Source: Schaalia meyeri (lineage in GTDB: Bacteria > Actinomycetota > Actinomycetes > Actinomycetales > Actinomycetaceae). Taken from it: a DNA stretch of 32,000 nucleotides. The stretch lies in assembly GCF_900105015.1 (NCBI RefSeq), contig NZ_FNLK01000008.1, positions 30,001-62,000 of the forward strand, written 5' to 3'. Each line of letters starts with the position of its first letter. Position 1 is the stretch's first letter. The notes under the pieces are model-generated. The model saw only the letters and a program-made list of their open reading frames with translations. It searched no databases and was not told the DNA's origin. Below are positions 5,549-31,292 of this stretch, in pieces. A program made the position numbers and the translations under genes.

Positions 5549-5636
5549 TTAAATATGCTCAAAATATGTGCATATGCCCACTCGTATGTCATGATAATTA
5601 GGTCCAATGTCCCACACACCGACGCGCGGAGCATCA

Positions 5637-7307
5637 ATGACCCCCCTATTCGTAGCCCAAACCTTTACCCCGTCGACGACGGCCGTGGCAGGAAATGTCT
5701 TCCTGACCGCTGTCGTGGGCCTCCTCCCCCTCGCTGTCTTCTTCGTCCTCATGGGCGTGTTCAAGGTCGCGACCCACTGGTGTTCGATCATCGCGCTCGT
5801 ACTCTCCCTCGTCATCGCGATCTTCGCCTTCCAGATGCCGATAGGCATGGCACTCCTGGCGGGCACGCAGGGGGCGGCAATGGGCTTCATGCCGATCATC
5901 TACATCATCATCGCGGCCGTGTGGCTGTACAACCTGACCGAGAAATCGGGCCGCAGCGCCGACCTGAAGGCCGTGTTTAACACGATCGGGCGTGGCGACC
6001 AGCGCGCTCAGGCCCTGATCGTCGCCTTCTGCTTCTGCGGCCTTCTCGAGGGACTGGCTGGCTTCGGCGCTCCCGTTGCCATCACCTGCGCGATGCTCGT
6101 CACCCTGGGGGTGCCGAAGATCAAGGCCGCCGTCGTCACCGTCGTCGGCAACGCGATCAACGTCGGCTTCGGTGCCATGGCGATCCCCACGACGACAGCC
6201 GGTCGCCTGGGTGGCGCCGACGCAACGGCCGTGGCCGCCAACATGGGTCACCTGACCTGGATCTTCTGCCTCTTCATCCCCCTCCTCCTGCTCTTCATCC
6301 TGGACGGCGGCCGCGGCGTTCGTCAGCTCTGGCCCCTCGCCCTCGTCGCCGGTGCCGCCGCCGGCGTGGGCCACTTCGTGACCCCCTCCGTTTCCTACGA
6401 GCTGACCGCCGTCGTCGCCTCCCTCCTGGGATTTGCGGCCTGCTACGTGTTCCTGCTCGTGTGGAGCCCCACGACCCCCCAGGACTGTGCGACCAGCGCG
6501 GACGAGTCGGATAAGCCCTCCGGATCCCGCATCGCGCTGGCTCTCATGCCCTACGTCCTGGTCGTCGTGATCATCGCGATCACCAAGCTGTGGAGGATCG
6601 GCGTAAGCCTGCCTGATCTGCTGAAATCAACAGACCGCGACATCCCCTGGCCCGGCATTTACGGCTCCCTGCTGGGCGCCGACGGGCAGCCCTCAACCGC
6701 TGCGATCTACACGTTGCAGATCCTGTCCAACCCCGGCACGTGGATCTTCGTCACCGGCATCATCGTGGCGATCGTGTACGGATCGAACTCCTCGGGCGGA
6801 CGCTTCGCTACCTCCATTCCCCAGATGTTCGCGGTCCTGCCGCGCACCATCTACTCGCTGCGCATGGCGATCCTGACGATCGCCTCCGTCATGGCCCTGG
6901 CCTTCGTTATGAACCTGTCCGGGCAGACCACCTCCATCGGTGCCGCGCTGGCCACGACGGGGGCGGCATTCGCCTTCCTTTCCCCGATCCTGGGATGGAT
7001 CGGCACGGCAGTCGCCGGTTCCGCGACCTCAGCGGGCGCGCTCTTCGCGAACCTCCAGTCCACCGCGGCCACCGGGGCGGGCCTGGATCCGCGCATCCTT
7101 TTGGCCGCCAACACCATCGGCGGCGGCATCGGCAAGATCGTTTCCCCCCAGAACCTGGCGATCGCGGCGACTTCCGTGGACTCCGAGGGCTCGGACGCGG
7201 AGATCCTCAAGAAGGCCGCTCCCTACTCAATCGGCCTGCTCCTGGTCCTGTGCATCCTCGTGTTCGTCTCCTCGCAGGGCTGGCTCGGCGCGTACATGCC
7301 GGCCTGA
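5637..7307 (+). CDS. lctP: L-lactate permease (LctP family)
   Basis: A polytopic membrane protein of about 556 aa. The N-terminal region NVFLTAVVGLLPLAVFFVLMG and the motif GFMPIIYIIIAAVWLYNLTEKSGR match the LldP/LctP layout. ATG 5637 has GGAG at 5628-5631, and 5607 is an alternative start. Confidence 0.9.
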   Translation: MTPLFVAQTFTPSTTAVAGNVFLTAVVGLLPLAVFFVLMGVFKVATHWCSIIALVLSLVIAIFAFQMPIGMALLAGTQGAAMGFMPIIYIIIAAVWLYNLTEKSGRSADLKAVFNTIGRGDQRAQALIVAFCFCGLLEGLAGFGAPVAITCAMLVTLGVPKIKAAVVTVVGNAINVGFGAMAIPTTTAGRLGGADATAVAANMGHLTWIFCLFIPLLLLFILDGGRGVRQLWPLALVAGAAAGVGHFVTPSVSYELTAVVASLLGFAACYVFLLVWSPTTPQDCATSADESDKPSGSRIALALMPYVLVVVIIAITKLWRIGVSLPDLLKSTDRDIPWPGIYGSLLGADGQPSTAAIYTLQILSNPGTWIFVTGIIVAIVYGSNSSGGRFATSIPQMFAVLPRTIYSLRMAILTIASVMALAFVMNLSGQTTSIGAALATTGAAFAFLSPILGWIGTAVAGSATSAGALFANLQSTAATGAGLDPRILLAANTIGGGIGKIVSPQNLAIAATSVDSEGSDAEILKKAAPYSIGLLLVLCILVFVSSQGWLGAYMPA

Positions 7308-7329
7308 TCCCCGCGCTCTCGGGGGGATT
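7306..7329 (+). terminator. Weak hairpin plus TTT overlapping the lctP stop codon
   Basis: CCCCG (7308-7312) pairs with CGGGG (7319-7323), followed by GGATTT. The stem is short and imperfect. Confidence 0.3.
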
Positions 7330-7388
7330 TGCTTCCGAGGGCACCCCCGAGTAGTCTCGCTGCATACATCCCAACGAAGGAGATTAGC

Positions 7389-7670
7389 GTGGCAAACTTG
7401 CGTTTCTCGAGCGAAGAAATCAGGGCGGCGATTGACTGTCTGGGTCGCGGTGCAAGCATCGGATTTGGTCTATCCGATCCCCCAGCACAGCCCTGCTGCA
7501 ACACGTACATCGGCAGGCTTCACCGCCCTCTTGAAGAGCTCAACAAAGAGGAAGACCATGTGAGAAGCAACATCAGTGATGCTCGCCAGAACCTACGGAC
7601 AACCATCGAGATTTTCGAGGCCACCGAAGCCCAGATTTCTCAATCCCTCAGCAGTCTGCAGAAAAGCTAA
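7389..7670 (+). CDS. Small (93 aa) predicted helical protein; candidate secretion partner or chaperone for the downstream WXG/LXG-type toxin
   Basis: GTG 7389 lies 6 nt after a strong SD, GAAGGAG (7376-7382). The C-terminal half (EELNKEEDHVRSNISDARQNLRTTIEIFEATEAQISQSLSSLQ) is heptad-like and helical. The gene ends 8 nt before the toxin ATG. Its size and position mimic the small helper proteins upstream of LXG toxins. No family was recognised. Confidence 0.55.
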   Translation: MANLRFSSEEIRAAIDCLGRGASIGFGLSDPPAQPCCNTYIGRLHRPLEELNKEEDHVRSNISDARQNLRTTIEIFEATEAQISQSLSSLQKS

Positions 7671-7678
7671 AGTACATC

Positions 7679-8704
7679 ATGATCACCAGATCCCAACTCG
7701 AAGGGTTGGACGTCCTCGCGTTCGACCCACTGCTCCAACAGATCCGGATGTCCATCCAATCCAACAAAGACAAAATCTCCGATATCGAAAAAGCAACGTC
7801 ACACATCGTATCCGGGTGGGAAGGTGAGAGCAGCAATGCCGCACAGAGCAGGCTCTCTCACATCCAGGAGCAGACCCAGAAGCACATCGATGATCTCGAG
7901 GCGATGAAAAAGACCGTCACGACCTACGTCGAGGCAAAGAAATTACGGCAAGCCCACATCCTGGCGTTCATTGCGGAGCTTAAGACACTCCAGATGACTG
8001 TCACCGATGACTGGCAGGTTCGTCCAAATATTGCGCTGATGGCTGCCGCATCTGTCGGCGGGGCATTCATCCTAGCTGCACAGGTAACGAAACGTCTGCA
8101 TGCCCTCGTCAGGATGTTTGAGCAATACGAATACGAGGCACCCATCGCAGGAGTCAGCACCGCTCCCTCGTTCGTGTCCTCGTCAGGCTACTCAACCAGC
8201 CAACCCGACAGAACGATCAATTTCGACGACGATTTTCCATACGGCTCCAAGAAGGGAAAAGAGACGTTGGAGGACCGCGCTAACTGGGCAAAATGGGGGC
8301 TCAAGCTCGAGGGGGCGGAAGCAATCGGAGGCATGCCCGACGCATGCAAAATGTATCGTCATTTCCGAGAAGGAAAAGGAACCCCCATGCGTTTCGACTA
8401 CGACAAGGCGTACCGGGAAGATGCTGGCATTCGCAACTTTGTCAATGACGAACTGAATGGGTCTCTGCAGGCAGCCAACGAGGCCGTGAAATCGGGGAAC
8501 ACAAACGTCACCCTTCACTCGCCGATGCGCACGAACAGCGGCTACTACCCCGAGACGGAAAACTGGCAGAAGACTGTCGGCGGCTACAGCAGCTACACCG
8601 AAACGAATGTCCAGGTCTCGGGAGACACAGTCACCGCCACGGTCACGGTTCACGCCAAAGACAAGTGGAACTTCAACTACGTCTCCATGTGCATTGGAGC
8701 GTGA
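7679..8704 (+). CDS. WXG100/LXG-superfamily polymorphic toxin candidate (341 aa): N-terminal WXG helical hairpin, central hydrophobic segment, C-terminal domain of unknown family
   Basis: W47-E48-G49 (nt 7817-7825) sits in SGWEGESSNAAQ at the position expected for a WXG100 hairpin turn, between two helical stretches of about 40 aa. IALMAAASVGGAFILAAQV (aa 118-136) is hydrophobic. An S/T/P linker follows, then a domain of about 165 aa (aa 178-341). The stop overlaps the start of the next gene (GTGA at 8701-8704). Confidence 0.65.
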   Translation: MITRSQLEGLDVLAFDPLLQQIRMSIQSNKDKISDIEKATSHIVSGWEGESSNAAQSRLSHIQEQTQKHIDDLEAMKKTVTTYVEAKKLRQAHILAFIAELKTLQMTVTDDWQVRPNIALMAAASVGGAFILAAQVTKRLHALVRMFEQYEYEAPIAGVSTAPSFVSSSGYSTSQPDRTINFDDDFPYGSKKGKETLEDRANWAKWGLKLEGAEAIGGMPDACKMYRHFREGKGTPMRFDYDKAYREDAGIRNFVNDELNGSLQAANEAVKSGNTNVTLHSPMRTNSGYYPETENWQKTVGGYSSYTETNVQVSGDTVTATVTVHAKDKWNFNYVSMCIGA

Positions 8705-9261
8705 CCTTGAAACTTTCCCTCCGCATTCTTGCCCCGTTGGTCGTCGTCGTGGCGCTCACCGCATGCAGCCCCTTTGCACCTAGGAACCCTCGGGTGCAGC
8801 TCCCCCACGACCCGCGCTTCACAAAATTCACGTCAAAGACCGAGGGCGACCCAAAGCTCGGCGACCAGCTGGATTCCTTCAATGAACGTATGCCCGCTCT
8901 CGGGGCAACCGAGGGCCATTTCGCAGCAGGTTTGATTCCCACCGGTTGGAGTCTCTTGCCCACCCCGGATCGGCAGCACTGGTACACCGGGGTTGCCACA
9001 GTCCCCGACGAGACGATCAAGAGACTCCAGGCCGGTGCGAGCGGTGACGCGAAGACACTGCCCGGAATTTACCCTGAGCTCTACCAGTACGTGCCTCAGG
9101 ACTGTCATTTCCCAACCATTCCATCGGACCATGCGAACAAGGTCCTTGAAACCAACAAGACAAGCATGAACAGCAAGTATGGTTCCCTCACAATCAAGGA
9201 GTTCGCCGCCTCGATGGACTGTCACCTGGTCCTGGTAGTCGGCGAGATCAGGCGCGGCTAG
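8701..9261 (+). CDS. Lipoprotein, candidate immunity protein (paralog 1)
   Basis: Signal peptide with lipobox L-T-A-C (VTLKLSLRILAPLVVVVALTAC). GTG 8701 overlaps the toxin stop. TTG 8707 (MKLSLRIL...) is an alternative start with GGAG (8696-8699) 7 nt upstream. The mature region is 54% identical to paralog 2 (89/165 positions, gapless hand alignment). Confidence 0.65.
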   Translation: MTLKLSLRILAPLVVVVALTACSPFAPRNPRVQLPHDPRFTKFTSKTEGDPKLGDQLDSFNERMPALGATEGHFAAGLIPTGWSLLPTPDRQHWYTGVATVPDETIKRLQAGASGDAKTLPGIYPELYQYVPQDCHFPTIPSDHANKVLETNKTSMNSKYGSLTIKEFAASMDCHLVLVVGEIRRG

Positions 9262-9310
9262 GAGGGCTTGTTTCTGTCCATCAGCGATGGTTCTCTTACG
9301 TAAGGTAGGC

Positions 9311-9868
9311 ATGAAACTCTTATTTCGCACTCTCGTACCGTTGGTCATCGTCGCGGCGCTGAGCGCGGCTTGCTACCCTTTTGTGCCAAGAAAACCCAAG
9401 GTGCATCTCCCCCACGACCCGCGCTTCGCCGAGTTCACGTATGAGACCGATGACGAGCTGAAGGTACAGGAGCGCATCGATTCATTTAACGAGCGTATGC
9501 CCGAACTGGGAGCGACCGAAGGACACGTCGTCGTAGCCCATTTCCGGGATGGCGCATCCTGGCAGCCGACGCCCGACCGCCAATTCTGGCTGACCGGCGT
9601 CGCCACAGTCCCCGATACGACGATCGCTATGCTCGTCGACGACAACATCGGCGAATCCTCGTTGCTGCCCGGCATCCACCCCGACCTCTACCAGTACGTG
9701 CCCGAGGAATGCTCTTTCACGACCGTTGACCCCGACGTCGCCAACAAGGTCCTCGATACCGCTCGTAACGAGTTTTATTCGGAATGGGGCTCGTTCGAGA
9801 TCCGCGAGTTCGTGTTCTCTGCCGACTGTAACCTCATCCTTGTCACCGGCGATGGCCTCCAGGGCTAG
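9311..9868 (+). CDS. Lipoprotein, candidate immunity protein (paralog 2)
   Basis: Signal peptide MKLLFRTLVPLVIVAALSAAC, with a lipobox-like ...AAC. Shared motifs with paralog 1 are LPHDPRF, DSFNERMP-LGATEGH, TPDRQ-W-TGVATVPD, LPGI-P-LYQYVP and ANKVL. ATG 9311 is preferred over the track's 9287. Confidence 0.65.
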   Translation: MKLLFRTLVPLVIVAALSAACYPFVPRKPKVHLPHDPRFAEFTYETDDELKVQERIDSFNERMPELGATEGHVVVAHFRDGASWQPTPDRQFWLTGVATVPDTTIAMLVDDNIGESSLLPGIHPDLYQYVPEECSFTTVDPDVANKVLDTARNEFYSEWGSFEIREFVFSADCNLILVTGDGLQG

Positions 9869-10462
9869 CACACCGACCTTAACGACACATATTAAGCTCC
9901 CACTCAAGATTCTCGCTCCAACTCTCGCAGTTATCGCTCTGGTCTCCGCGTGCCTCCCGTCCTCCTCCGGGCGTTCGTCCAGCCACAACACCAAACCCGC
10001 TGCATCGAAGATAGATCCCCGATTCGCTGAGTTTCAACACACCTTCAAGAAAAACCGGAGATTCAAGAAATGGTTGACATTCTCAACGAGCATTGGTCAG
10101 ACCTGGAGGCGACGGAGACTCACCTCACCCTCGCGTACTCTCGCACTGGCTTCTGTGACGTCAACATCGAACCCGAATTTTGGATGACTGGCGTCCCGAC
10201 CATTTCCGATGAAGCAATCGAGATGCTCAGCGTCAAGACAGACAATACGAATACCCTCCAGCCCGGCATCTATCCGGGCCTCTACCAATACGTGCCCCAG
10301 GACTGCCACTTCTCCATGATCCCCGCCGACCACGCCAATGAGACCCTCGAGACGAAGACGACCAAGTCTTCCTCTCCCTTCGGCTCGTTCAAGGTCCAGG
10401 AGCTCGCCGTTTCCGCGGACTGCCACCTCGTCGTCGTGACGGGAGAGGGAGTGATGGGATAG
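9852..10462 (+). pseudogene. Lipoprotein, candidate immunity paralog 3, disrupted by a 1-nt frameshift near the A5 run at 10050-10054
   Basis: The N-terminal part (lipobox V-S-A-C, then IDPRFAEFQHTF) is in frame 0, within track ORF 9726..10187. The C-terminal part (EKPEIQEMVDILNEHWSDLEATETH...LQPGIYPGLYQYVPQDCHF...SADCHLVVVTGEGVMG) is in frame 2. Frame 2 has a stop at 10028-10030, so the switch must fall between 10031 and about 10055. The codon homologous to the paralog start codons is ATT (9891-9893). The only upstream ATG (9852) lacks an SD. Confidence 0.6.
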
Positions 10463-10487
10463 CAACTCACCCACAATCCCCGGCCCG

Positions 10488-10509
10488 GGCCTCGTCCATT
10501 GTCGAGGCC
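10488..10509 (+). terminator. Short hairpin after the third lipoprotein gene
   Basis: GGCCTCG (10488-10494) pairs with CGAGGCC (10503-10509) across an 8-nt loop. There is no T-tract. Confidence 0.3.
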
Positions 10510-10760
10510 GAGGTGCCAGTGCGCTCACTCGCGACCATCGCAAAAATGAAAAACGAAAACTCACCCTGAGCTAAGTCGCCTTCCATGCGCCTCATTTCTT
10601 TCGGATACAAGGGATTTTTCGACGATGATTTTTCTTTAGTTTTCCGCGAGAATTCGCCGCTCACGCGCCATCCTCCACACAGCGGACACGAGAATACACC
10701 CCGGGACCTCCGACCTAGTCATAACCTGAGACTGACAGCACCTACGAGGAAGGATCCCCC

Positions 10761-11558
10761 GTGCGCATCGCTCTCTTTTCCACCTGCCTAGCAGACGTCA
10801 TGTTCCCCCAGGCGGCCCAGGCGACAGTGACCCTGCTCGAACGCCTCGGCCATGAGGTCGTCTTCCCCGAAGGCCAGGTCTGCTGCGGCCAGATGCACGC
10901 CAACACCGGCTATTTTGAAGACGCAGCGAAGATCACCCGTAACCACGTCAAGGCCTTCGAGCCCGTCCTGGACGGACTATGGGACGCCATCGTCGTTCCC
11001 TCCGGCTCCTGCACCGGCGCAGCACGCCACGAACAGAAGGTCGTCGCCGAACACGTTGGAGACACAGAGCTGGCCAAGCAGTCCCAGCGCATCGCCCAGC
11101 ACACCTACGACCTCACCGAACTCCTCACCGACGTCCTGGGCCTGGAAGACGTGGGCGCATACTTCCCCCACACCGTCACCTACCACCCGACCTGCCACTC
11201 CCTGCGCATCGCCAGGGTCGGCGACCGCCCCTACCGCCTGCTGCGCCAGGTCGAAGGACTGACCCTCATCGACCTGCCGGACGCCGAGGTCTGCTGCGGA
11301 TTCGGCGGCACCTTCTCCATGAAGAACTCCGAAACTTCCACGTCGATGCTGGCCGACAAAGTCGCCAACGTCATGTCCACGCGCGCAGAGGTCCTGGTCA
11401 TGGGCGACTACTCCTGCCTCCTGCACGTCGGCGGCGGCCTCTCCCGCCTCAACTCCGGTATCCGCCCCATACACCTCGCCGAAATCCTGGCATCCACCAA
11501 GGACCAGCCCTTCCAGGGCAACATCTCCTTCGCACCCGAAAGCGCACAGGTGATCTGA
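10761..11558 (+). CDS. lutA: Lactate utilization protein A (Fe-S oxidoreductase, CCG-domain)
   Basis: N-terminus RIALFSTCLADVMFPQAAQATVTLLERLGHEVVFPEGQVCCGQMH, and a second CCG motif (EVCCGFGGTF). The start is GTG 10761, with GAGGAAGGA at 10746-10754. Confidence 0.9.
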   Translation: MRIALFSTCLADVMFPQAAQATVTLLERLGHEVVFPEGQVCCGQMHANTGYFEDAAKITRNHVKAFEPVLDGLWDAIVVPSGSCTGAARHEQKVVAEHVGDTELAKQSQRIAQHTYDLTELLTDVLGLEDVGAYFPHTVTYHPTCHSLRIARVGDRPYRLLRQVEGLTLIDLPDAEVCCGFGGTFSMKNSETSTSMLADKVANVMSTRAEVLVMGDYSCLLHVGGGLSRLNSGIRPIHLAEILASTKDQPFQGNISFAPESAQVI

Positions 11559-11559
11559 C

Positions 11560-13164
11560 ATGACCGCAACGTTCATCGGAATGCCCTCCACCCCCGAATC
11601 CCACACCGGCGGCTGGCGCACCACCGTCACCATCCCCGAAGACACCCTCCGCTGGGGCCACACCTTCCCCGAGGGCGCACACAAGACACTGGCCAACACC
11701 CAGATGCGCCGTAACCTCGGCCACGCCACCCGCACCATCCGCACCAAGCGCGGGCAGCGCGTCGCCGAAATGCCGGACTGGGAGGACCTGCGCAGCGCCG
11801 CCGAGGCCGTCAAATTCGAAGTCGAATCGCGCATGCCCGAGCTGCTCGAAGAGTTCGAGCGCAACGTCACCGCTCGCGGCGGCATCGTCCACTGGGCGCG
11901 CGACAAGCACGAGGCCAACCGCATCGTCGCGGACATCATCAAGTCCAAGGGCGTCGACGAGGTCGTCAAGATCAAGTCCATGGCCACCCAGGAAACCAAC
12001 CTCAACGAGTACCTGAAGGGTCAGGGGATCTCCGCGCTGGAAACCGACCTGGCCGAGATGATCGTCCAGCTGGCCGACGACATGCCCAGCCACATCGTGG
12101 TCCCCGCGATCCACCGCAACCGCTCCGAAGTGCGCGGCATCTTCCTGGATCGCATGGAGGACGCGCCGCGCGATCTCTCGGATGACCCGACCGAGCTCAC
12201 GGGCGCCGCCCGCGCCCACCTGCGCAAAAAGTTCCTGCACGCCAAGGTCGCCGTCTCCGGCACCAACATGGGCATCGCGGAAACCGGCACCGTCTCCGTC
12301 TACGAATCCGAGGGCAACGGTCGCATGTGCCTGACCCTGCCGGACACGCTCATCACCCTGATGGGCATCGAGAAGCTGGTGCCCCGCTTCCAGGACATCG
12401 AGATCTTTTCCCAGCTGCTGCCCCGTTCCGCGACCGGCGAGCGCATGAACCCCTACACTTCCCTGTGGACGGGCGTCACCCCCGGCGATGGCCCCCAGGA
12501 GTTCCACCTGATCCTCATGGACAACGGGCGCACCAAGGTACTCGCGGACCCCATCGGACGACAGGCCCTCGCCTGTATTCGCTGCGGCTCCTGCATGAAC
12601 ATCTGCCCCGTCTACCAGCACACATCCGGTCACGCCTACGGCTCTGTCTACCCCGGGCCCATCGGTGCGATCCTCACCCCGCAGCTCACCCAGGGCCTGG
12701 GCGAGAAGGATCCTGTGCACACCCTCCCCTTCGCCTCCTCTCTGTGCGGTGCGTGCGGCGAGGTTTGCCCCGTCAAGATCGACATCCCCACGATCCTCAT
12801 CCATATGCGCGCGCGCACGGTGGACATCAAGCGCAACATCGTGCCCGATGTGTGGGACCTGGCGATGGGCGTTGCCACCCCCGTCATGTCGAACGCGACG
12901 CTGTGGAAGGCCGCAGGCATGTCCACCAAGACCACCCGCCTGTTCGCCAAGAAGGGGGCGATCGGCGCGCTGCCGTTCCCGGCTTCGCTGTGGACCCGCG
13001 CGCGCGACCTGCCGGTGGTGCCCAAGGAAACATTCCGGCAGTGGTGGAAGCGCACCCACGCGGACTCCGACGCAAACGCGCCCCGCACGGACACCCCCGC
13101 CACGGGGCTCCCGCTCGCATCCGAGCATGGCATGACCACCCGCACGACCCCCGAGGAGGCGTGA
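11560..13164 (+). CDS. lutB: Lactate utilization protein B (4Fe-4S ferredoxin-type plus LUD domain)
   Basis: Two ferredoxin cluster motifs, CIRCGSCMNICPVY and CGACGEVCPVKIDIP. The ATG lies 1 nt after the lutA stop. Confidence 0.9.
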   Translation: MTATFIGMPSTPESHTGGWRTTVTIPEDTLRWGHTFPEGAHKTLANTQMRRNLGHATRTIRTKRGQRVAEMPDWEDLRSAAEAVKFEVESRMPELLEEFERNVTARGGIVHWARDKHEANRIVADIIKSKGVDEVVKIKSMATQETNLNEYLKGQGISALETDLAEMIVQLADDMPSHIVVPAIHRNRSEVRGIFLDRMEDAPRDLSDDPTELTGAARAHLRKKFLHAKVAVSGTNMGIAETGTVSVYESEGNGRMCLTLPDTLITLMGIEKLVPRFQDIEIFSQLLPRSATGERMNPYTSLWTGVTPGDGPQEFHLILMDNGRTKVLADPIGRQALACIRCGSCMNICPVYQHTSGHAYGSVYPGPIGAILTPQLTQGLGEKDPVHTLPFASSLCGACGEVCPVKIDIPTILIHMRARTVDIKRNIVPDVWDLAMGVATPVMSNATLWKAAGMSTKTTRLFAKKGAIGALPFPASLWTRARDLPVVPKETFRQWWKRTHADSDANAPRTDTPATGLPLASEHGMTTRTTPEEA

Positions 13165-25371: not shown

Positions 25372-27747
25372 TCATCCGAGCCACGCGCCCGAGGGACTGA
25401 AGTGGAACCAGGATCCGTTGATGCGGACCCATCCGGTGGCCATCTTGCCGGTCGCGGTGTCCAGGTAGTACCAGGTGTCGCCGTCCTTCAGCCAGCCGGT
25501 GGCCATCTTGCCAGAGCCGTCCAGGTAGTACCAGGAACCGTCCAGGTTGGTCCATCCGGTGGCCATCTTGCCGGAGGCATCCAAGTAGTACCAGGAGTCG
25601 CCGTCTTTCAGCCAGCCGGTGGCCATCTTGCTGGAGGCATCCATGTAGTACCAGGAGCCGCGGTCGTTGACCCAGCCGGTCGTGGCGCGGCCGGAGGCGT
25701 TCATCCAGTGCCACGCGCCGTCGTAGTAAGCCCAGCCGGTGACCATGATGCCGTCCTCGTCGAAGTAGTAGTCACCGTCGCCGATCCTCAGGTGCTCGCT
25801 CTTCGCGCAGGAGCCGTCGTCGTAGCAGTAGCTCCAACCGTTAGCGCCGTTGGACCAGGCCCCGCCCTCGCGCACGTATTTGTCGACGTGGAAGTGGGCG
25901 GGTTCCGTCACGTCATCGTCGGCACGAATATCCTTGTTCCGACCTTCGGCGGCGACGGTGGCGTGTGCGGAGGTGCCCACGAGGGGGGACAGGTCGATGG
26001 GGCCGGCGGTGACGGTGACCTCGTTGCCGGTGAAAGAGCCGTCACCGGCGCCTCGTGCGAAGGCGAGGCCCGCGACGTTGAGGGTCACGGCGGTGACCGG
26101 ACCGGAGGCGGTCACGCGCACGTGGATCGTGCCGGACACGCGCGCGCCGGCCAGCGGCTTCCAGTCGGTGAGGCCGTCTCGCGAGTACTCCACCACGCCG
26201 ATGGTCGGCTTGGGCTGATCTTCCAGGACGGCCGCCAGCGCGTTCGCCAGGCCCGCACCGCGATATTCCTTGCCGTCCTCGGGGGCGGCCAGTCGATTAT
26301 AGGTGTAGCCGGCCTGCTTCTTGAGCAAGTTGATCGTCTGATCGGCAGTGTAGTCCGGGTGGATCTCCTTGATCAGCGCGGCGACTCCAGCCACGTGCGG
26401 GGAGGCCATGGAGGTGCCGGACAGGTAGGCAAAGGGAGGGTTCTGCTTCCACGTGGGAACCGTCGACCAGATGCGGCTGCCCGGGGCTGCCACGTCAACG
26501 GAGTTCTTGCCGTAGTTCGAGAACTTCGAGCGATTGAGGGTGGCGGTCGCGGGATCGGCGCCACCGGGCAGGGCCAGAGCGGCCACGGACACGACCGAAT
26601 CGTTCAGCATGGAGGGAACGTCGATGCCGCCTCGAACGTCACGCTCGCGCGCGGCTCCCTCGACGTCATTCGGGGAGTCGCTGTCCTTCGTCGGATTGTC
26701 GTGGTCGTCGTTGCTGTTGCCCTCGGCGGCGATGTTCACCACGCCCTGGGCCTTCGAGTATCGGACCGCGCGGGACGCGGCCTCGAGACCCGCAGCCTGG
26801 GAGCTCTCGCCCGGCATCCAGAAGGCGTAGGGGTCCATGTAGTAGCTGGAGTTTGTCACGTCGATGCCGTGGTCGGCTGCCCAGTCAAAGGCGCAGGCCA
26901 CGTACTCGGGGTAAAAGGAACCGGCCAGGTTCGAGGTCTTGATGGCGACGAGCGTCGCATCGGGGGCCACGCCATCCACGCCGTAGGCGTTGTGTGCGGC
27001 GGCAATCGTGCCGGCGACGTGCGTGCCGTGGTAGTGGTCGTCCTTCCACGCTGAGGGATCCTGGTTCGGGATGCCATTCACCTGGCAACCGACGGACAGG
27101 GAGGTGTCGATCCTGTCCTTGAGGTCCTTGTGGTCGGGGTCGATGCCGGTGTCCATGACGGCGACGGTCACCTTTTCGCGGGGCACGTCAACCTTCTGGG
27201 CTTCGATCGATCCGATCGCGGTCAGACCCCACGCGTTGGCGTCTCCCACGTCGGGGGTGAAGTCGTTGAGCTGGGAGTCGGCGGACAGGCCGGTCACGTG
27301 GGTGCCGGCGGCCTCGGAGACGGCGGCCGCTTCAGCGGGGGTGGCCTGCGGCTGCTCGGTACGGACCTCTTCACCGGTGACGGTCTTGTAGCGGGTGGGG
27401 CCGATCGAGTGATAGGAGATTCCCGCGTCGACCAGGCTCTTGCCGAGCGCCGGAGCGAAGGACGCCTTCACCGACTGGACGAAGAAGGCGTTGAATTCGG
27501 GGTACTGGGCCAGGAGCACGCCGCTTTCCGAGGCCTTGGAGACGGCCGCGTTGAATTCGTAGCGCGAGGCGTCGGCAGGCAGGTTGACGGCGTAGTTCAT
27601 GACCTCGTCTTGGGCGCGCGCCTCGGAGGTGATCCCAGGGACACCGGCCGCGTGGGCGGGCGCACCGAATGCGGTGATCGTCAAGCCCGCAGCGAGGGCG
27701 GTTCCTCCCGCGATGAGGGTTTTCCATGAGCGTTGATGCATCATCAT
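25372..27747 (-). CDS. Secreted subtilisin-like (S8) serine protease with C-terminal cell-wall-binding repeats
   Basis: Signal peptide MMMHQRSWKTLIAGGTALAAGLTITAFGAPAHA. Catalytic triad motifs VAVMDTGID, HGTHVAGTIAA and SGTSMASPHVAGVAAL. The C-terminus carries about 6-7 repeats of GW-x5-G-x-WYY-x4-G-KMATGW. The start is one of three consecutive ATGs at 27747, 27744 and 27741. Confidence 0.9.
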   Translation of the reverse strand: MMMHQRSWKTLIAGGTALAAGLTITAFGAPAHAAGVPGITSEARAQDEVMNYAVNLPADASRYEFNAAVSKASESGVLLAQYPEFNAFFVQSVKASFAPALGKSLVDAGISYHSIGPTRYKTVTGEEVRTEQPQATPAEAAAVSEAAGTHVTGLSADSQLNDFTPDVGDANAWGLTAIGSIEAQKVDVPREKVTVAVMDTGIDPDHKDLKDRIDTSLSVGCQVNGIPNQDPSAWKDDHYHGTHVAGTIAAAHNAYGVDGVAPDATLVAIKTSNLAGSFYPEYVACAFDWAADHGIDVTNSSYYMDPYAFWMPGESSQAAGLEAASRAVRYSKAQGVVNIAAEGNSNDDHDNPTKDSDSPNDVEGAARERDVRGGIDVPSMLNDSVVSVAALALPGGADPATATLNRSKFSNYGKNSVDVAAPGSRIWSTVPTWKQNPPFAYLSGTSMASPHVAGVAALIKEIHPDYTADQTINLLKKQAGYTYNRLAAPEDGKEYRGAGLANALAAVLEDQPKPTIGVVEYSRDGLTDWKPLAGARVSGTIHVRVTASGPVTAVTLNVAGLAFARGAGDGSFTGNEVTVTAGPIDLSPLVGTSAHATVAAEGRNKDIRADDDVTEPAHFHVDKYVREGGAWSNGANGWSYCYDDGSCAKSEHLRIGDGDYYFDEDGIMVTGWAYYDGAWHWMNASGRATTGWVNDRGSWYYMDASSKMATGWLKDGDSWYYLDASGKMATGWTNLDGSWYYLDGSGKMATGWLKDGDTWYYLDTATGKMATGWVRINGSWFHFSPSGAWLG
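25375..25790 (-). repeat. 60-63 bp tandem coding repeats encoding the cell-wall-binding (CW_binding_1-like) modules
   Basis: The string CCGGTGGCCATCTTGC recurs at 25433, 25496, 25556 and 25616, with a diverged unit retaining only CCGGT at 25676. The period is 60-63 bp. Confidence 0.8.
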
Positions 27748-27816
27748 TCCTCGTTTCTGTATTGATGGGGACGCACCCTTCGGATCAATCCGCGGGGTAC
27801 GCCGTTTACACATCGT

Positions 27817-27870
27817 GTCAAGGTTTGTCACTAAATTGCCAGAGGGTTTCACATTTTAAGAAACCTTGAC
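27817..27870. promoter_or_regulatory. 10-bp perfect inverted repeat, with a nested 6-bp one, upstream of the S8 protease gene
   Basis: GTCAAGGTTT (27817-27826) pairs with AAACCTTGAC (27861-27870). Nested inside, GGTTTC (27845-27850) pairs with GAAACC (27860-27865). The element lies 70-125 bp upstream of the protease start. Confidence 0.35.
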
Positions 27871-28786: not shown

Positions 28787-30079
28787 TCACTCGCCGCCGC
28801 CCACCGGCACGCGCTTGGAGGGGTGGCGTCGGTCCTCGCCCCGCCACCACGGCATCCACGCGGCGTAACCATCCGCGGGGGGCGTCGGCGCATCCGGCTG
28901 GAAGCCGAGATCGGCCGGGGTCTCGGGGATACGGTCAACCAGGAAGTACTTGTCCCTGTCGTCGCAGTGTTCGCGCACAATCGTGCGGAACTCCTTCAGC
29001 TCACAGTACAGGACGCCGGTGATCGGGTTCCTCTTCCACGCAACGATCTTGTACACCCAATAGACGAAGAGGGCGACGTTGGCCGCGAGCGCGAGGACCG
29101 CGCACGCGATGTTCGCACGCGGATCCATCGTGGCAAAGTTGAAGATGTCCGAGGGCGGAACCAGCACCTCCGGCAGCAGGGTGTTCATCGAGATCCAAAA
29201 GACCAGCGTGAAACAGCGGAACCAGATCCACTGGCCCTTCGCCCACGTGAATGCCGGGATCGTGCAGGCCAGCAGCAGCGCCAGCGTGCAATACCAGGTG
29301 TAGTCGGCCAGCGAATTGTAGAGGAACGCGTGATTCCACAGGTCGTAGGCGATGACCCACGGCCACACCATGTCCACCCAGATCAGTCCGCGCACCTTCT
29401 GCTTGCCCGGTGAGGTCACGATGATTTTGCCGAGCCCCGTGATCGTGATGATGTTGAGCAGGCCAGCCGCCGCCGACAAGAGGTTCCAGACCCCGCCGAT
29501 CGTGCGGAACCCGGTCTCCGGGTCGATGCCGACGTGCCGGGCAGACAGGTTGGCGGCAACCTCCTGATACCACTGCTGCGAATGGAGCTCGGCAGTGACG
29601 CCCCGCGCCTCGGGCAACCCCGCGATCATGTCGATCGTGTGGGAGTCATTGACGGACTTCAGGCACTGCCAGTCGGCACCGCACGCATAATAGGAGTCGG
29701 CGTTGAAGTAGATCGTCAAGTCACGGATATTGGCTTCCATGATATTGACAGCCAATCCGATCCACAGGGCAACACCCAGCCAAATCGCGTACTTATGAGC
29801 CTTGACGGGATTGCGTTTGGCATAGAGCAGGACAGTTCCAGTCATGGTAGCCGTCAAAATCATGATCGCGTACTTGCCAAACGGAAACCAGCCCACCATG
29901 GGCGTCCCGTGGATCCACGCGTAGGGCATCAGCGCGATGCCGCCGACCGTCCAGACGGCAAAGATCGTCCAGTTCCACCGCCGGTTGATCTCGGCGACGA
30001 TGATCTGAGCGGCCAGGACAGCGAACCAGATGACATAGACCTTTGGGGTTCCAATCTCCCAGAGGAAGAGAGTCTCCAC
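28787..30079 (-). CDS. Polytopic membrane protein of unknown function (430 aa), paralog A
   Basis: About 9-10 hydrophobic helices. It shares the block VWPWVIAYDLWNHAFLYNSLADYTWYCTLALLLACTIPAF with the gene starting at 31292. It also has a Cys-containing loop insert of about 50 aa and a Trp/Pro-rich cytoplasmic tail. Confidence 0.8.
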   Translation of the reverse strand: METLFLWEIGTPKVYVIWFAVLAAQIIVAEINRRWNWTIFAVWTVGGIALMPYAWIHGTPMVGWFPFGKYAIMILTATMTGTVLLYAKRNPVKAHKYAIWLGVALWIGLAVNIMEANIRDLTIYFNADSYYACGADWQCLKSVNDSHTIDMIAGLPEARGVTAELHSQQWYQEVAANLSARHVGIDPETGFRTIGGVWNLLSAAAGLLNIITITGLGKIIVTSPGKQKVRGLIWVDMVWPWVIAYDLWNHAFLYNSLADYTWYCTLALLLACTIPAFTWAKGQWIWFRCFTLVFWISMNTLLPEVLVPPSDIFNFATMDPRANIACAVLALAANVALFVYWVYKIVAWKRNPITGVLYCELKEFRTIVREHCDDRDKYFLVDRIPETPADLGFQPDAPTPPADGYAAWMPWWRGEDRRHPSKRVPVGGGE

Positions 30080-30251
30080 AGCATTCTCCTTCGAAACTGC
30101 AACTGAGCTTATGGTTGTCGGCTATCATAGTGCCTTAATCAACCCAATGTACGAGGTCCGCCACGGAATCCGGGTCACGCCCGGGACGCTCTGCCCGACG
30201 ACCCACATCTGCATCAAGCAGGCCTCGCCTGATCCTCAAGGAGGAGGACTC

Positions 30252-31292
30252 ATGACACGACACTCACGCATGCGCTCGCTATGCCGCATCAGCCTGGCGG
30301 GAACGGCCGCACTCCTGGGTGGCATGTACGCGTTCAGCCAGCTCACCGGGAAAGCGACGCCGGAAGAACAGGCCTGGCGCTATCCGGGAGACGATCTCAT
30401 CGACGCCAACTATGACAACGGCTACTCCTCGACCTACGCCATCACCATTGACGCCCCCGCCTATGCGGTATGGAGGCTCTTTAAACAGATCGGAGCGGAA
30501 AAATCCGGGTCGTTCTCCTCGGAGTTCCTGGAAAGGACCTTCGCTCGTCTCCCCTTCTTCAACTCCTACGAGATACAGGAGGAGTTCCAGCAGCCTGATT
30601 CCATGAAGCCCGGCGACATTGCTGCTTTCGACTTCCACGGGATGTCCATGGAGTGGGCTGACATCGTGCCCGGCAAGTACCTGGTTCAGTGGGTCGACAC
30701 GAAGAACCCGCCGAAGGCTCCCGGGTCCTACGCTTTCCGTTTCCCGGGTATGCGGCATTTCGCGGCGGCCTGGTGCTTCTATATGGTGCCGCTGGCCGGA
30801 GGCCGCACTCGCCTCATCAACCACTGGCGTATCGGCTACGAGCCGCCCAGCGCGGCAATGACCGCGCTCAATTGGGTCAACATCGAGTTCATCGGCGGGT
30901 GTATGACGCACCTGCAGAATCTCTACGTGAAACGCGTCCTGGAGTTTAAGAAGAAGCAGCACCTGACAGGTCGCGTTATGCGCGGCATGCTCGGCGGGCG
31001 GTTCTTCGCCAGCCCCACCCCGGCCGGCCGACACGACGGCACGCCCCTTTTTGAGGACACCTTCACCCAGTGGTTCCGTTATGGGCGCTCAGCCCCGGCT
31101 GTCGCTGAAATACGCCCGCCCGTCACCGACGATCCATCGTGGCCGCCGACGGGTCCGGGCACCCCGTGGGAAAGCGAGGTTGATTCCTCCTACTTCGAGG
31201 GCTGGAGCGAACCGGCATTTTCTTGGGATGAGCAGATACGCCAAAAGATGGAGCGCACCTATCTGCCCGATTGGGGTAAGGAACAACGCTGA
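30252..31292 (+). CDS. Membrane-anchored SRPBCC (START/polyketide-cyclase-like) ligand-binding-fold protein with a Trp-rich acidic tail
   Basis: ATG 30252 follows AAGGAGGAGGA. N-terminal anchor LCRISLAGTAALLGGMYAF. SRPBCC-type opening strand and helix YAITIDAPAYAVWRLFKQIG. The C-terminal 90 aa are rich in W, P, D and E. The stop overlaps the next gene's ATG (TGATG at 31290-31294). Confidence 0.65.
   Translation: MTRHSRMRSLCRISLAGTAALLGGMYAFSQLTGKATPEEQAWRYPGDDLIDANYDNGYSSTYAITIDAPAYAVWRLFKQIGAEKSGSFSSEFLERTFARLPFFNSYEIQEEFQQPDSMKPGDIAAFDFHGMSMEWADIVPGKYLVQWVDTKNPPKAPGSYAFRFPGMRHFAAAWCFYMVPLAGGRTRLINHWRIGYEPPSAAMTALNWVNIEFIGGCMTHLQNLYVKRVLEFKKKQHLTGRVMRGMLGGRFFASPTPAGRHDGTPLFEDTFTQWFRYGRSAPAVAEIRPPVTDDPSWPPTGPGTPWESEVDSSYFEGWSEPAFSWDEQIRQKMERTYLPDWGKEQR

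Follow-up and report, generated by a model that had tools for sequence, protein, structure and literature searches.

Diverged lipoprotein genes beside a truncated Esx-type toxin gene in Schaalia meyeri: candidate orphan immunity genes between lldP and lutA

What is the role of several diverged lipoprotein genes that stand in tandem beside a single toxin gene? The question is raised by a 32,000-nucleotide (nt) stretch of Schaalia meyeri DNA (assembly GCF_900105015.1, contig NZ_FNLK01000008.1, positions 30,001 to 62,000 of the forward strand), which we call the window and whose own numbering, starting at 1, is used here. Its G+C (guanine plus cytosine) content is ~67%, but an island at ~7300-10760 has only ~58% and holds, all on the + strand, a gene for a 93-amino-acid (aa) helical protein, a 341-aa open reading frame (ORF) and three lipoprotein-type regions, bordered by lldP on the left and lutA/B/C on the right. 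An earlier note, made from the sequence alone, proposed that the lipoproteins are an array of extracytoplasmic immunity proteins next to one toxin. With a probability of roughly 55%, we favor the reading that they are indeed extracytoplasmic immunity proteins, largely orphan, directed against an envelope-acting Esx toxin, and that a 120-aa protein encoded between toxin and lipoproteins in related strains (imm120) is a factor needed by producers only. The occurrence of the same toxin domain with the family in other genomic contexts, the variable copy number, the retention of the lipoproteins without toxin and precedents for lipoprotein immunity all support the proposal; on the other side, the toxin-adjacent gene is imm120, the toxin of this strain is dead and the third lipoprotein copy is a pseudogene.

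A broken toxin gene beside two intact lipoprotein genes

The toxin gene is broken in this strain, and one deletion hit both it and imm120. The 341-aa ORF (7679..8704, +) comprises residues 1-333 of a 392-aa Esx-type toxin followed, in frame, by the last 8 codons of imm120 (YVSMCIGA*). Its homologs are ~392-445 aa long, and a full-length toxin, P0121 (392 aa), is 100% identical to it through ...KDKWNFN and then continues for 59 extra residues. Two contigs with 99.7% identity to the window (L001 and L002; L numbers denote loci compared with the window, P numbers proteins) carry the 392-aa toxin gene and then the 120-aa gene, and blastn aligned L001 1-1644 with window 7034-8677 and L001 2168-2962 with window 8678-9472 at 99.7% identity. 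Relative to these contigs, the window lacks 523 base pairs (bp; L001 1645-2167) at a junction at 8677..8678, which on inspection showed no evident microhomology. The missing segment takes with it the last 59 codons of the toxin gene, which include 13 of the 42 positions that never vary in the toxin C-terminal domain, as well as codons 1-112 of imm120. In L001, imm120 occupies 1832-2194 and encodes 120 aa with no signal peptide; in the window only its last 8 codons are left, at 8678-8704. Public assemblies hold three toxin alleles (the deleted one of 341 aa, the intact one of 392 aa and a frameshifted one of 258 aa), and what the earlier note took for the single adjoining toxin is the first of these.

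The three homologous lipoprotein-type regions that were described as a tandem array are present on the + strand at ~8701-10462, but copies 1 and 2 alone are intact. Copy 1 (8701..9261, +) ends its signal in the lipobox LTAC (Cys codon 8764-8766). Its GTG at 8701 overlaps the upstream stop codon (GTGA), and the same junction is found in L001, where the imm120 stop codon overlaps the start of the first lipoprotein gene; TTG 8707 is the likelier start, because a GGAG at 8696-8699 sits 7 nt 5' of it. Copy 2 (9311..9868, +) encodes 185 aa and has the lipobox SAAC (Cys codon 9371-9373), and copy 3 (9852..10462, +), the pseudogene, has VSAC (Cys codon 9951-9953), all three as earlier described. Lipoprotein signals were assigned by pattern (a basic N-terminus, then a hydrophobic segment and a lipobox with Cys at its end), and the N-termini concerned read MKLSLRILAPLVVVVALTAC in copy 1, MKLLFRTLVPLVIVAALSAAC in copy 2 and ...KILAPTLAVIALVSAC in copy 3. 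The shared blocks listed by the earlier note (DPRF, NE..L.ATE.H, W.TGV.T, PGI.P.LYQYVP..C.F and S.DC.L) were found again, and copies 1 and 2 are 54% identical, at 85 of 159 mature positions, where a hand alignment had given 89 of 165. Two Cys are conserved, and in 30 of 32 family members either both are present or both are missing, which fits the suggested disulfide. Synonymous divergence (dS) between copies runs from 1.45 to unmeasurable; the sites are saturated, so the duplications are old, as had been thought, and a ratio of nonsynonymous to synonymous change (dN/dS) of ~0.3 indicates that the copies have evolved under selection.

Copy 3, which the earlier note read as one ORF, is split between frames: its signal-peptide part is in frame 0 to ~10054, and the ORF that forms its body, 10070-10462, uses a different one. 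A gapless 203-aa paralog results when the A5 run at 10050-10054 is extended by one A, and intact orthologs have an extra base at just that run (A6 in L045 and L009, GA5 in L131), which marks a 1-nt deletion in the window. The start codon is also lost, with ATT at 9891-9893 where orthologs have ATG. We considered sequencing error as the source of the frameshift; it is ruled out by the lost start codon and by the presence of the shifted 130-aa ORF in 66 public contigs, complete genomes among them, because of which we regard the lesion as real and fixed. A 170-aa variant (P0322) uses the same shifted frame as the body of copy 3.

Pairing of the toxin domain with the lipoprotein family

The N-terminal part of the toxin resembles Esx proteins. 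It scored 22.5 bits against Pfam WXG100, which is under the cut-off of 27.3, and the toxin family profile matched EsxA in the PDB at 5.8e-5; in an AlphaFold2 (AF2) model with a predicted local distance difference test (pLDDT) score of 79, the N-terminal hairpin fitted EsxA/EsxB with template-modeling (TM) scores of 0.76-0.81 (Foldseek). For the C-terminal domain, no Pfam model matched and a profile of the domain found nothing significant among PDB sequences, with no match at the sequence level to BtpeA either. Its sole significant Foldseek neighbor, by contrast with these sequence searches, was 9jdi_A, the C-terminal domain of BtpeA (expectation value [E] = 5e-5, probability 1.0, 231 aligned columns), a type VI secretion system (T6SS) effector of Bacteroides fragilis. 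Because the C-terminal fold of an Esx toxin here matches that of a T6SS effector, the toxin domain, as modeled, seems to be common to different secretion systems and phyla of human-associated bacteria. A metagenome scan with the profile of the C-terminal domain returned close Schaalia-type loci only and zero distant lineages.

Just upstream of the toxin gene lies wxgS (7389..7670, +), which encodes the 93-aa helical partner from a GTG start with AAGGAG 8 nt 5' of it. Its Pfam matches are weak (LXG, E = 0.087; for the ortholog in L053, WXG100, E = 0.013), and a profile search of the PDB gave weak EsxA-like and coiled-coil matches only. In 7 of 7 loci examined (L003, L051, L053, L126, L131, L136 and L139), the toxin gene had 5' of it either a wxgS homolog or a similarly placed small ORF, and tblastn with the window wxgS itself detected this gene in only a few of the surveyed loci.

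We surveyed 43 loci by tblastn in a genome scan with one genome per species, and four further loci (L003, L004, L006 and L007) came from exact protein look-up. In 39 of the 43 scanned loci the lipoprotein family is flanked by lldP and lutA, and the four looked-up loci have the same arrangement; in the other 4 of the 43 the family adjoins at least one of lldP and lutA, though L015 shows neither. The toxin cassette is present in twelve of the scanned loci and absent from ~28, and the remaining 3 are truncated where their contigs end. Toxin-bearing loci of the scan have 2-5 lipoprotein copies, and toxin-less loci mostly have a single copy (seven have 2-4). The order is toxin, imm120, lipoprotein genes in all 16 toxin-bearing survey loci, 12 of them from the genome scan, and in 80 of 80 metagenome loci with toxin, where imm120 is followed by 1-6 lipoprotein genes. 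The composition of the array varies widely among strains.

Some loci contain a second, decayed cassette (L131 7214-8136; L126 2505-3265) made up of a partner gene, the N-terminal domain only of the toxin and a lipoprotein fragment, and because of these we suggest that an array expands when the entire cassette is duplicated and the toxin is then deleted. We had considered the second "toxin" of L126 and L131 as a different C-terminus; it is no more than a degraded N-terminal remnant of this very cassette. The earlier note had called for a survey of the family beside different toxin C-termini, and this one toxin domain was the only one that we found as its neighbor.

The same toxin domain occurs with the lipoprotein family in at least three contexts besides the lldP-lutA site. 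In Actinomyces naeslundii, between Zincin_1 and PadR genes, a gene denoted wxg95 and a 433-aa toxin gene are followed, after a 176-bp gap, by a gene for a 191-aa family member, which thus adjoins the toxin gene directly, and the 120-aa gene is missing. In A. viscosus, a frameshifted family member lies ~1.1 kilobases (kb) 5' of wxgS and the toxin gene, near TetR and hydrolase genes. On contig L144, a 236-aa protein containing the toxin domain's C-terminal half (49% identity) has membrane-anchored family members on either side that are 25-30% identical to the window copies. A much more distant toxin homolog, P0185 (C-terminal domain ~34% identical), is likewise directly followed by a lipobox lipoprotein; a remote kinship of that lipoprotein with the family was considered and dropped (hhalign E = 0.24, not significant), and we take it as unrelated.

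The lipoprotein family itself is small (65 clusters at 50% identity in a set of 1.84 billion proteins) and restricted to Actinomycetaceae. Copy 2 has 208 homologs, named "hypothetical" or "Lipoprotein" only, from Schaalia odontolytica, the closest being 97% identical and likewise 185 aa; the closest proteins to those of the window are in general from S. odontolytica/Pauljensenia. The lipoproteins matched nothing in Pfam or NCBIfam, the family profile found nothing significant among PDB sequences, and an AF2 model of copy 2 (pLDDT 87; predicted TM score [pTM] 0.78) had no fold neighbor in the PDB by Foldseek (best E = 0.2). The positions that never vary in the family hold hydrophobic or structural residues, and no set among them looks catalytic. 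The lipobox Cys is aligned in 27 of 32 members, and the remainder have signal anchors.

The earlier note had set its proposal against that of a conserved housekeeping lipoprotein found without adjacent toxins. Occurrence without toxin is what we observed in most species of the scan; a conserved housekeeping role did not hold up, because dN/dS (omega) in the toxin-less single-copy clade is 0.11-0.42 for the lipoprotein as compared to 0.01-0.06 for the flanking lldP and lutA, and because there are pseudogenes and the copy number varies. Judged by these rates, the toxin-less single copies are maintained yet fast-evolving.

Co-variation with imm120 and competing readings

If the lipoproteins are immunity proteins, the system might work as follows. 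The WXG100-like N-terminal helical hairpin of the toxin would pair with the small upstream helical protein for export, and the toxin would carry a C-terminal domain of ~225 aa that resembles the effector domain of BtpeA. We infer that such a toxin would be secreted and toxic, and that the lipoproteins, anchored on the outer face of the membrane, would bind the toxin domain as it arrives from neighboring cells and neutralize it by blocking it there; its site of action would then be the envelope or membrane. Diverged copies in an array would widen protection against toxin variants, and the cytoplasmic 120-aa protein would be a partner for producers only, either an inhibitor that acts before export or a chaperone of the toxin domain. 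This strain would thus have lost toxin activity and imm120 in the single 523-bp deletion; two of its lipoprotein genes would still work and serve as orphan immunity, and the third has decayed. The division between surface protection and a producer-only imm120 is suggested by the pattern of retention: the lipoproteins are kept and expanded regardless of the toxin, and imm120 is tied to the intact toxin.

Indeed, in all surveyed lldP-lutA loci with a toxin gene, imm120 comes next, and no locus had imm120 without the toxin. Its product has no Pfam match and gave nothing significant in a PDB profile search. When divergence of the toxin C-terminal domain was correlated with that of other parts across 69 distinct loci (Pearson r), imm120 gave by far the highest value at 0.93, followed by the toxin N-terminal domain (0.77), the first lipoprotein (0.47), the second lipoprotein (0.28), lutA (0.17) and lldP (0.05); the two toxin-lipoprotein values are confounded by linkage, and a cognate lipoprotein may lack a fixed position. 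On these sequence comparisons, imm120 appears to be the tightly matched partner of the toxin and the lipoproteins appear to be shuffled relative to it.

A number of these results weigh against our reading. The toxin-adjacent gene and tight co-variant is imm120 and not a lipoprotein (0.93 vs 0.47), and since the first and second lipoproteins track the toxin domain weakly, no specific cognate among them can be named. About 28 of the 43 species-level loci have one lipoprotein gene, or less often several, and no toxin, for which a role independent of the toxin is equally possible, and further family members occur without toxin at L141, L146 and L147. At the sensitivity of Foldseek, the lipoprotein model is unlike the immunity proteins TipC, TilA, EatI and BtpiA; such homology would be needed to place the family within a named one, but not for an immunity function. 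Moreover, our literature search found no account of the biochemical activity of BtpeA.

These same results bear on an alternative in which imm120 would be the sole immunity protein, the toxin would act in the cytoplasm of the target, and the lipoproteins would be fast-evolving surface proteins unrelated to the toxin, for example envelope proteins varied by phage or Saccharibacteria epibionts, that share a recombination-prone island with it. In this alternative, the canonical immunity position of imm120 and its correlation with the toxin domain are readily understood, as is its divergence, which is faster than that of the toxin (median distance 45% vs 31%), and the lipoproteins would be expected to stand alone, as they do in most species and at the three additional loci just named; the surface of S. 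odontolytica is also remodeled under epibiont infection (PMC13622651). However, in A. naeslundii an intact toxin is accompanied by a family lipoprotein but not by imm120, and the pairing of toxin and lipoprotein is repeated elsewhere, in L144 and A. viscosus. Were imm120 to protect from incoming toxin, one would also expect orphan imm120 genes, and none was seen in the surveyed loci. We thus consider this alternative, the main rival to our reading, unlikely, although it has several of our results in its favor.

The gene arrangement could also suggest that the lipoproteins are accessory factors on the side of the producer, which tether, mature or release the toxin at the surface, rather than immunity proteins. 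They lie downstream of the toxin in the same orientation, apparently in translational coupling to imm120 through the GTGA overlap, and their pairing with the toxin recurs across several genomic contexts. One would expect such a factor to vanish along with its toxin, yet toxin-less species keep the lipoproteins under purifying selection, and diverged multi-copy arrays would not be expected of a delivery factor; this explanation is therefore improbable in our view.

The genes that flank the island invite a last explanation. On the left is lldP, an L-lactate permease gene (5607..7307, +; Pfam Lactate_perm, E = 6e-109), and on the right a lutA-like gene with CCG domains (10761..11558, +; Pfam CCG, E = 6e-32), then lutB and lutC; lutABC was also confirmed at related loci. 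The ancestral single-copy lipoprotein might accordingly have been an accessory of lactate uptake or utilization (lldP-lipoprotein-lutABC), beside which the toxin cassette was inserted. The gene lies strictly between lldP and lutA in ~45 loci, including clades whose lldP is 68-75% identical to that of the window. Nevertheless, family members are found away from lldP and lut, and the family is tiny although lldP and lutABC are widespread; with an omega 5-10 times that of the flanking genes, and with pseudogenes and variation in copy number besides, a part in lactate metabolism is very improbable. The low G+C content of the island at 7300-10760 is compatible with horizontal acquisition or with some other mutational history.

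Several observations concern the surroundings rather than the lipoproteins. In A. bouchesdurhonensis (L034), halves of lldP (5816-6571 and 12137-13036) lie on both sides of the lipoprotein-lutABC block, suggesting a rearrangement or an insertion inside lldP. Schaalia-type loci also turned up in records titled Xylanimonas cellulosilytica (L008), Sanguibacter keddieii (L047), a Trueperella pyogenes metagenome-assembled genome (MAG; L021) and a Tannerella MAG (L015). The lldP of L008, L047 and L021 is 68-88% identical to that of the window, and L015 has lipoprotein genes only; these four assemblies are probably mislabeled or contaminated. Elsewhere in the window, and unconnected to the lipoprotein array, are a subtilase gene (Peptidase_S8) with choline-binding repeats at its C-terminus (25372-27852, -) and a gene for a DUF5692 protein (28787-30079, -). 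A second low-G+C stretch (28-31 kb) consists of the DUF5692 gene and the adjoining ORF at 30111-31292 only; the subtilase gene lies outside it, upstream, in sequence of 64-67% G+C. An Rfam scan of the window returned zero RNA families, and a promoter and terminator scan did no better than chance.

Related systems and significance

The locus is most likely, by analogy, an unannotated case of an established pattern in which toxins of type VII secretion systems (T7SS) come with arrays of immunity genes, as exemplified by TslA/Til1, TelC/TipC and EatA/EatI. S. odontolytica has a working Esx system whose distal candidate substrates each lie beside a small WXG100-like gene (PMC13622651). For Staphylococcus aureus TslA/Til1 (TilA), a T7SSb system, PMC13560087 (summarizing Garrett et al. 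2023) describes clusters of Til1 lipoprotein genes in which the toxin genes are often absent or frameshifted and the immunity genes are retained. The resemblance extends to a type VII toxin, one or more small helical partners and clusters of non-identical lipoprotein genes, and to recombining loci in which lipoprotein genes stay where the toxin is often absent or frameshifted. Yet Til1 has no detectable similarity in sequence or fold to the window family; TslA has a reversed domain order and a known lipase activity, unlike the window toxin with its N-terminal WXG-like domain; and the cassette type of the window has an extra gene for a 120-aa cytoplasmic protein between toxin and lipoproteins.

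Also related in kind are EatA/EatI of Mycobacterium abscessus and their Tap partners. EatA/EatI are an ESX-4 toxin and its lipoprotein immunity protein, and toxins predicted to act extracellularly co-occur with lipoprotein or transmembrane immunity proteins (PMC13444075). As here, the toxin is an actinobacterial Esx protein whose N-terminus forms a helical bundle, preceded by one or more small helical genes and followed by a Sec-lipobox lipoprotein, and loci differ in how many immunity genes are predicted (PMC13444075), just as copy number differs in the window family. EatA differs in being a GH183 endo-arabinanase, whereas the toxin domain of the window has no Pfam match and resembles BtpeA, and EatI is not detectably related to the window lipoproteins. 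TelC of Streptococcus intermedius, an LXG toxin and lipid II phosphatase, acts outside the membrane, and its immunity protein TipC faces outward (PMC6193138, abstract); this is the arrangement proposed here, namely outward-facing immunity to a toxin that acts outside the membrane. The folds of that toxin and immunity protein are different, we detected no homology, and the comparison rests on the literature. Finally, the BtpeA-BtpiA pair of B. fragilis, crystallized as a complex (PDB 9jdi), shares the fold of the BtpeA C-terminal domain with the C-terminal domain of the window toxin; in contrast, BtpeA is delivered by a T6SS and has a PAAR-type N-terminus, and no chain of 9jdi was among the top Foldseek matches of the lipoprotein model.

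A more specific form of the immunity reading, which we hold only tentatively, is protection in two compartments, with a cytoplasmic, rapidly co-evolving imm120 that would neutralize the toxin domain inside producers or act as its chaperone, and a shuffled array of surface lipoproteins that would evolve separately and neutralize incoming toxin. If true, it would imply that the domain acts on the membrane or envelope and does harm from either side of the membrane, and it would imply the exchange of one and the same BtpeA-like domain between Gram-positive Esx and Bacteroides T6SS weaponry in human-associated communities.

S. odontolytica is the model host of oral Saccharibacteria, and its Esx activity has only lately been shown (PMC13622651); no antibacterial toxin-immunity pair of this species has been characterized so far. 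The locus offers a set of candidates for such work: a toxin domain that lacks annotation and is related in fold to a Bacteroides T6SS effector, a new lipoprotein family with no known neighbor in fold and a 120-aa partner that appears to co-evolve with the toxin. Natural alleles such as that of the window, in which the toxin is dead and the putative immunity genes are retained, provide ready comparison strains for studies of competition.

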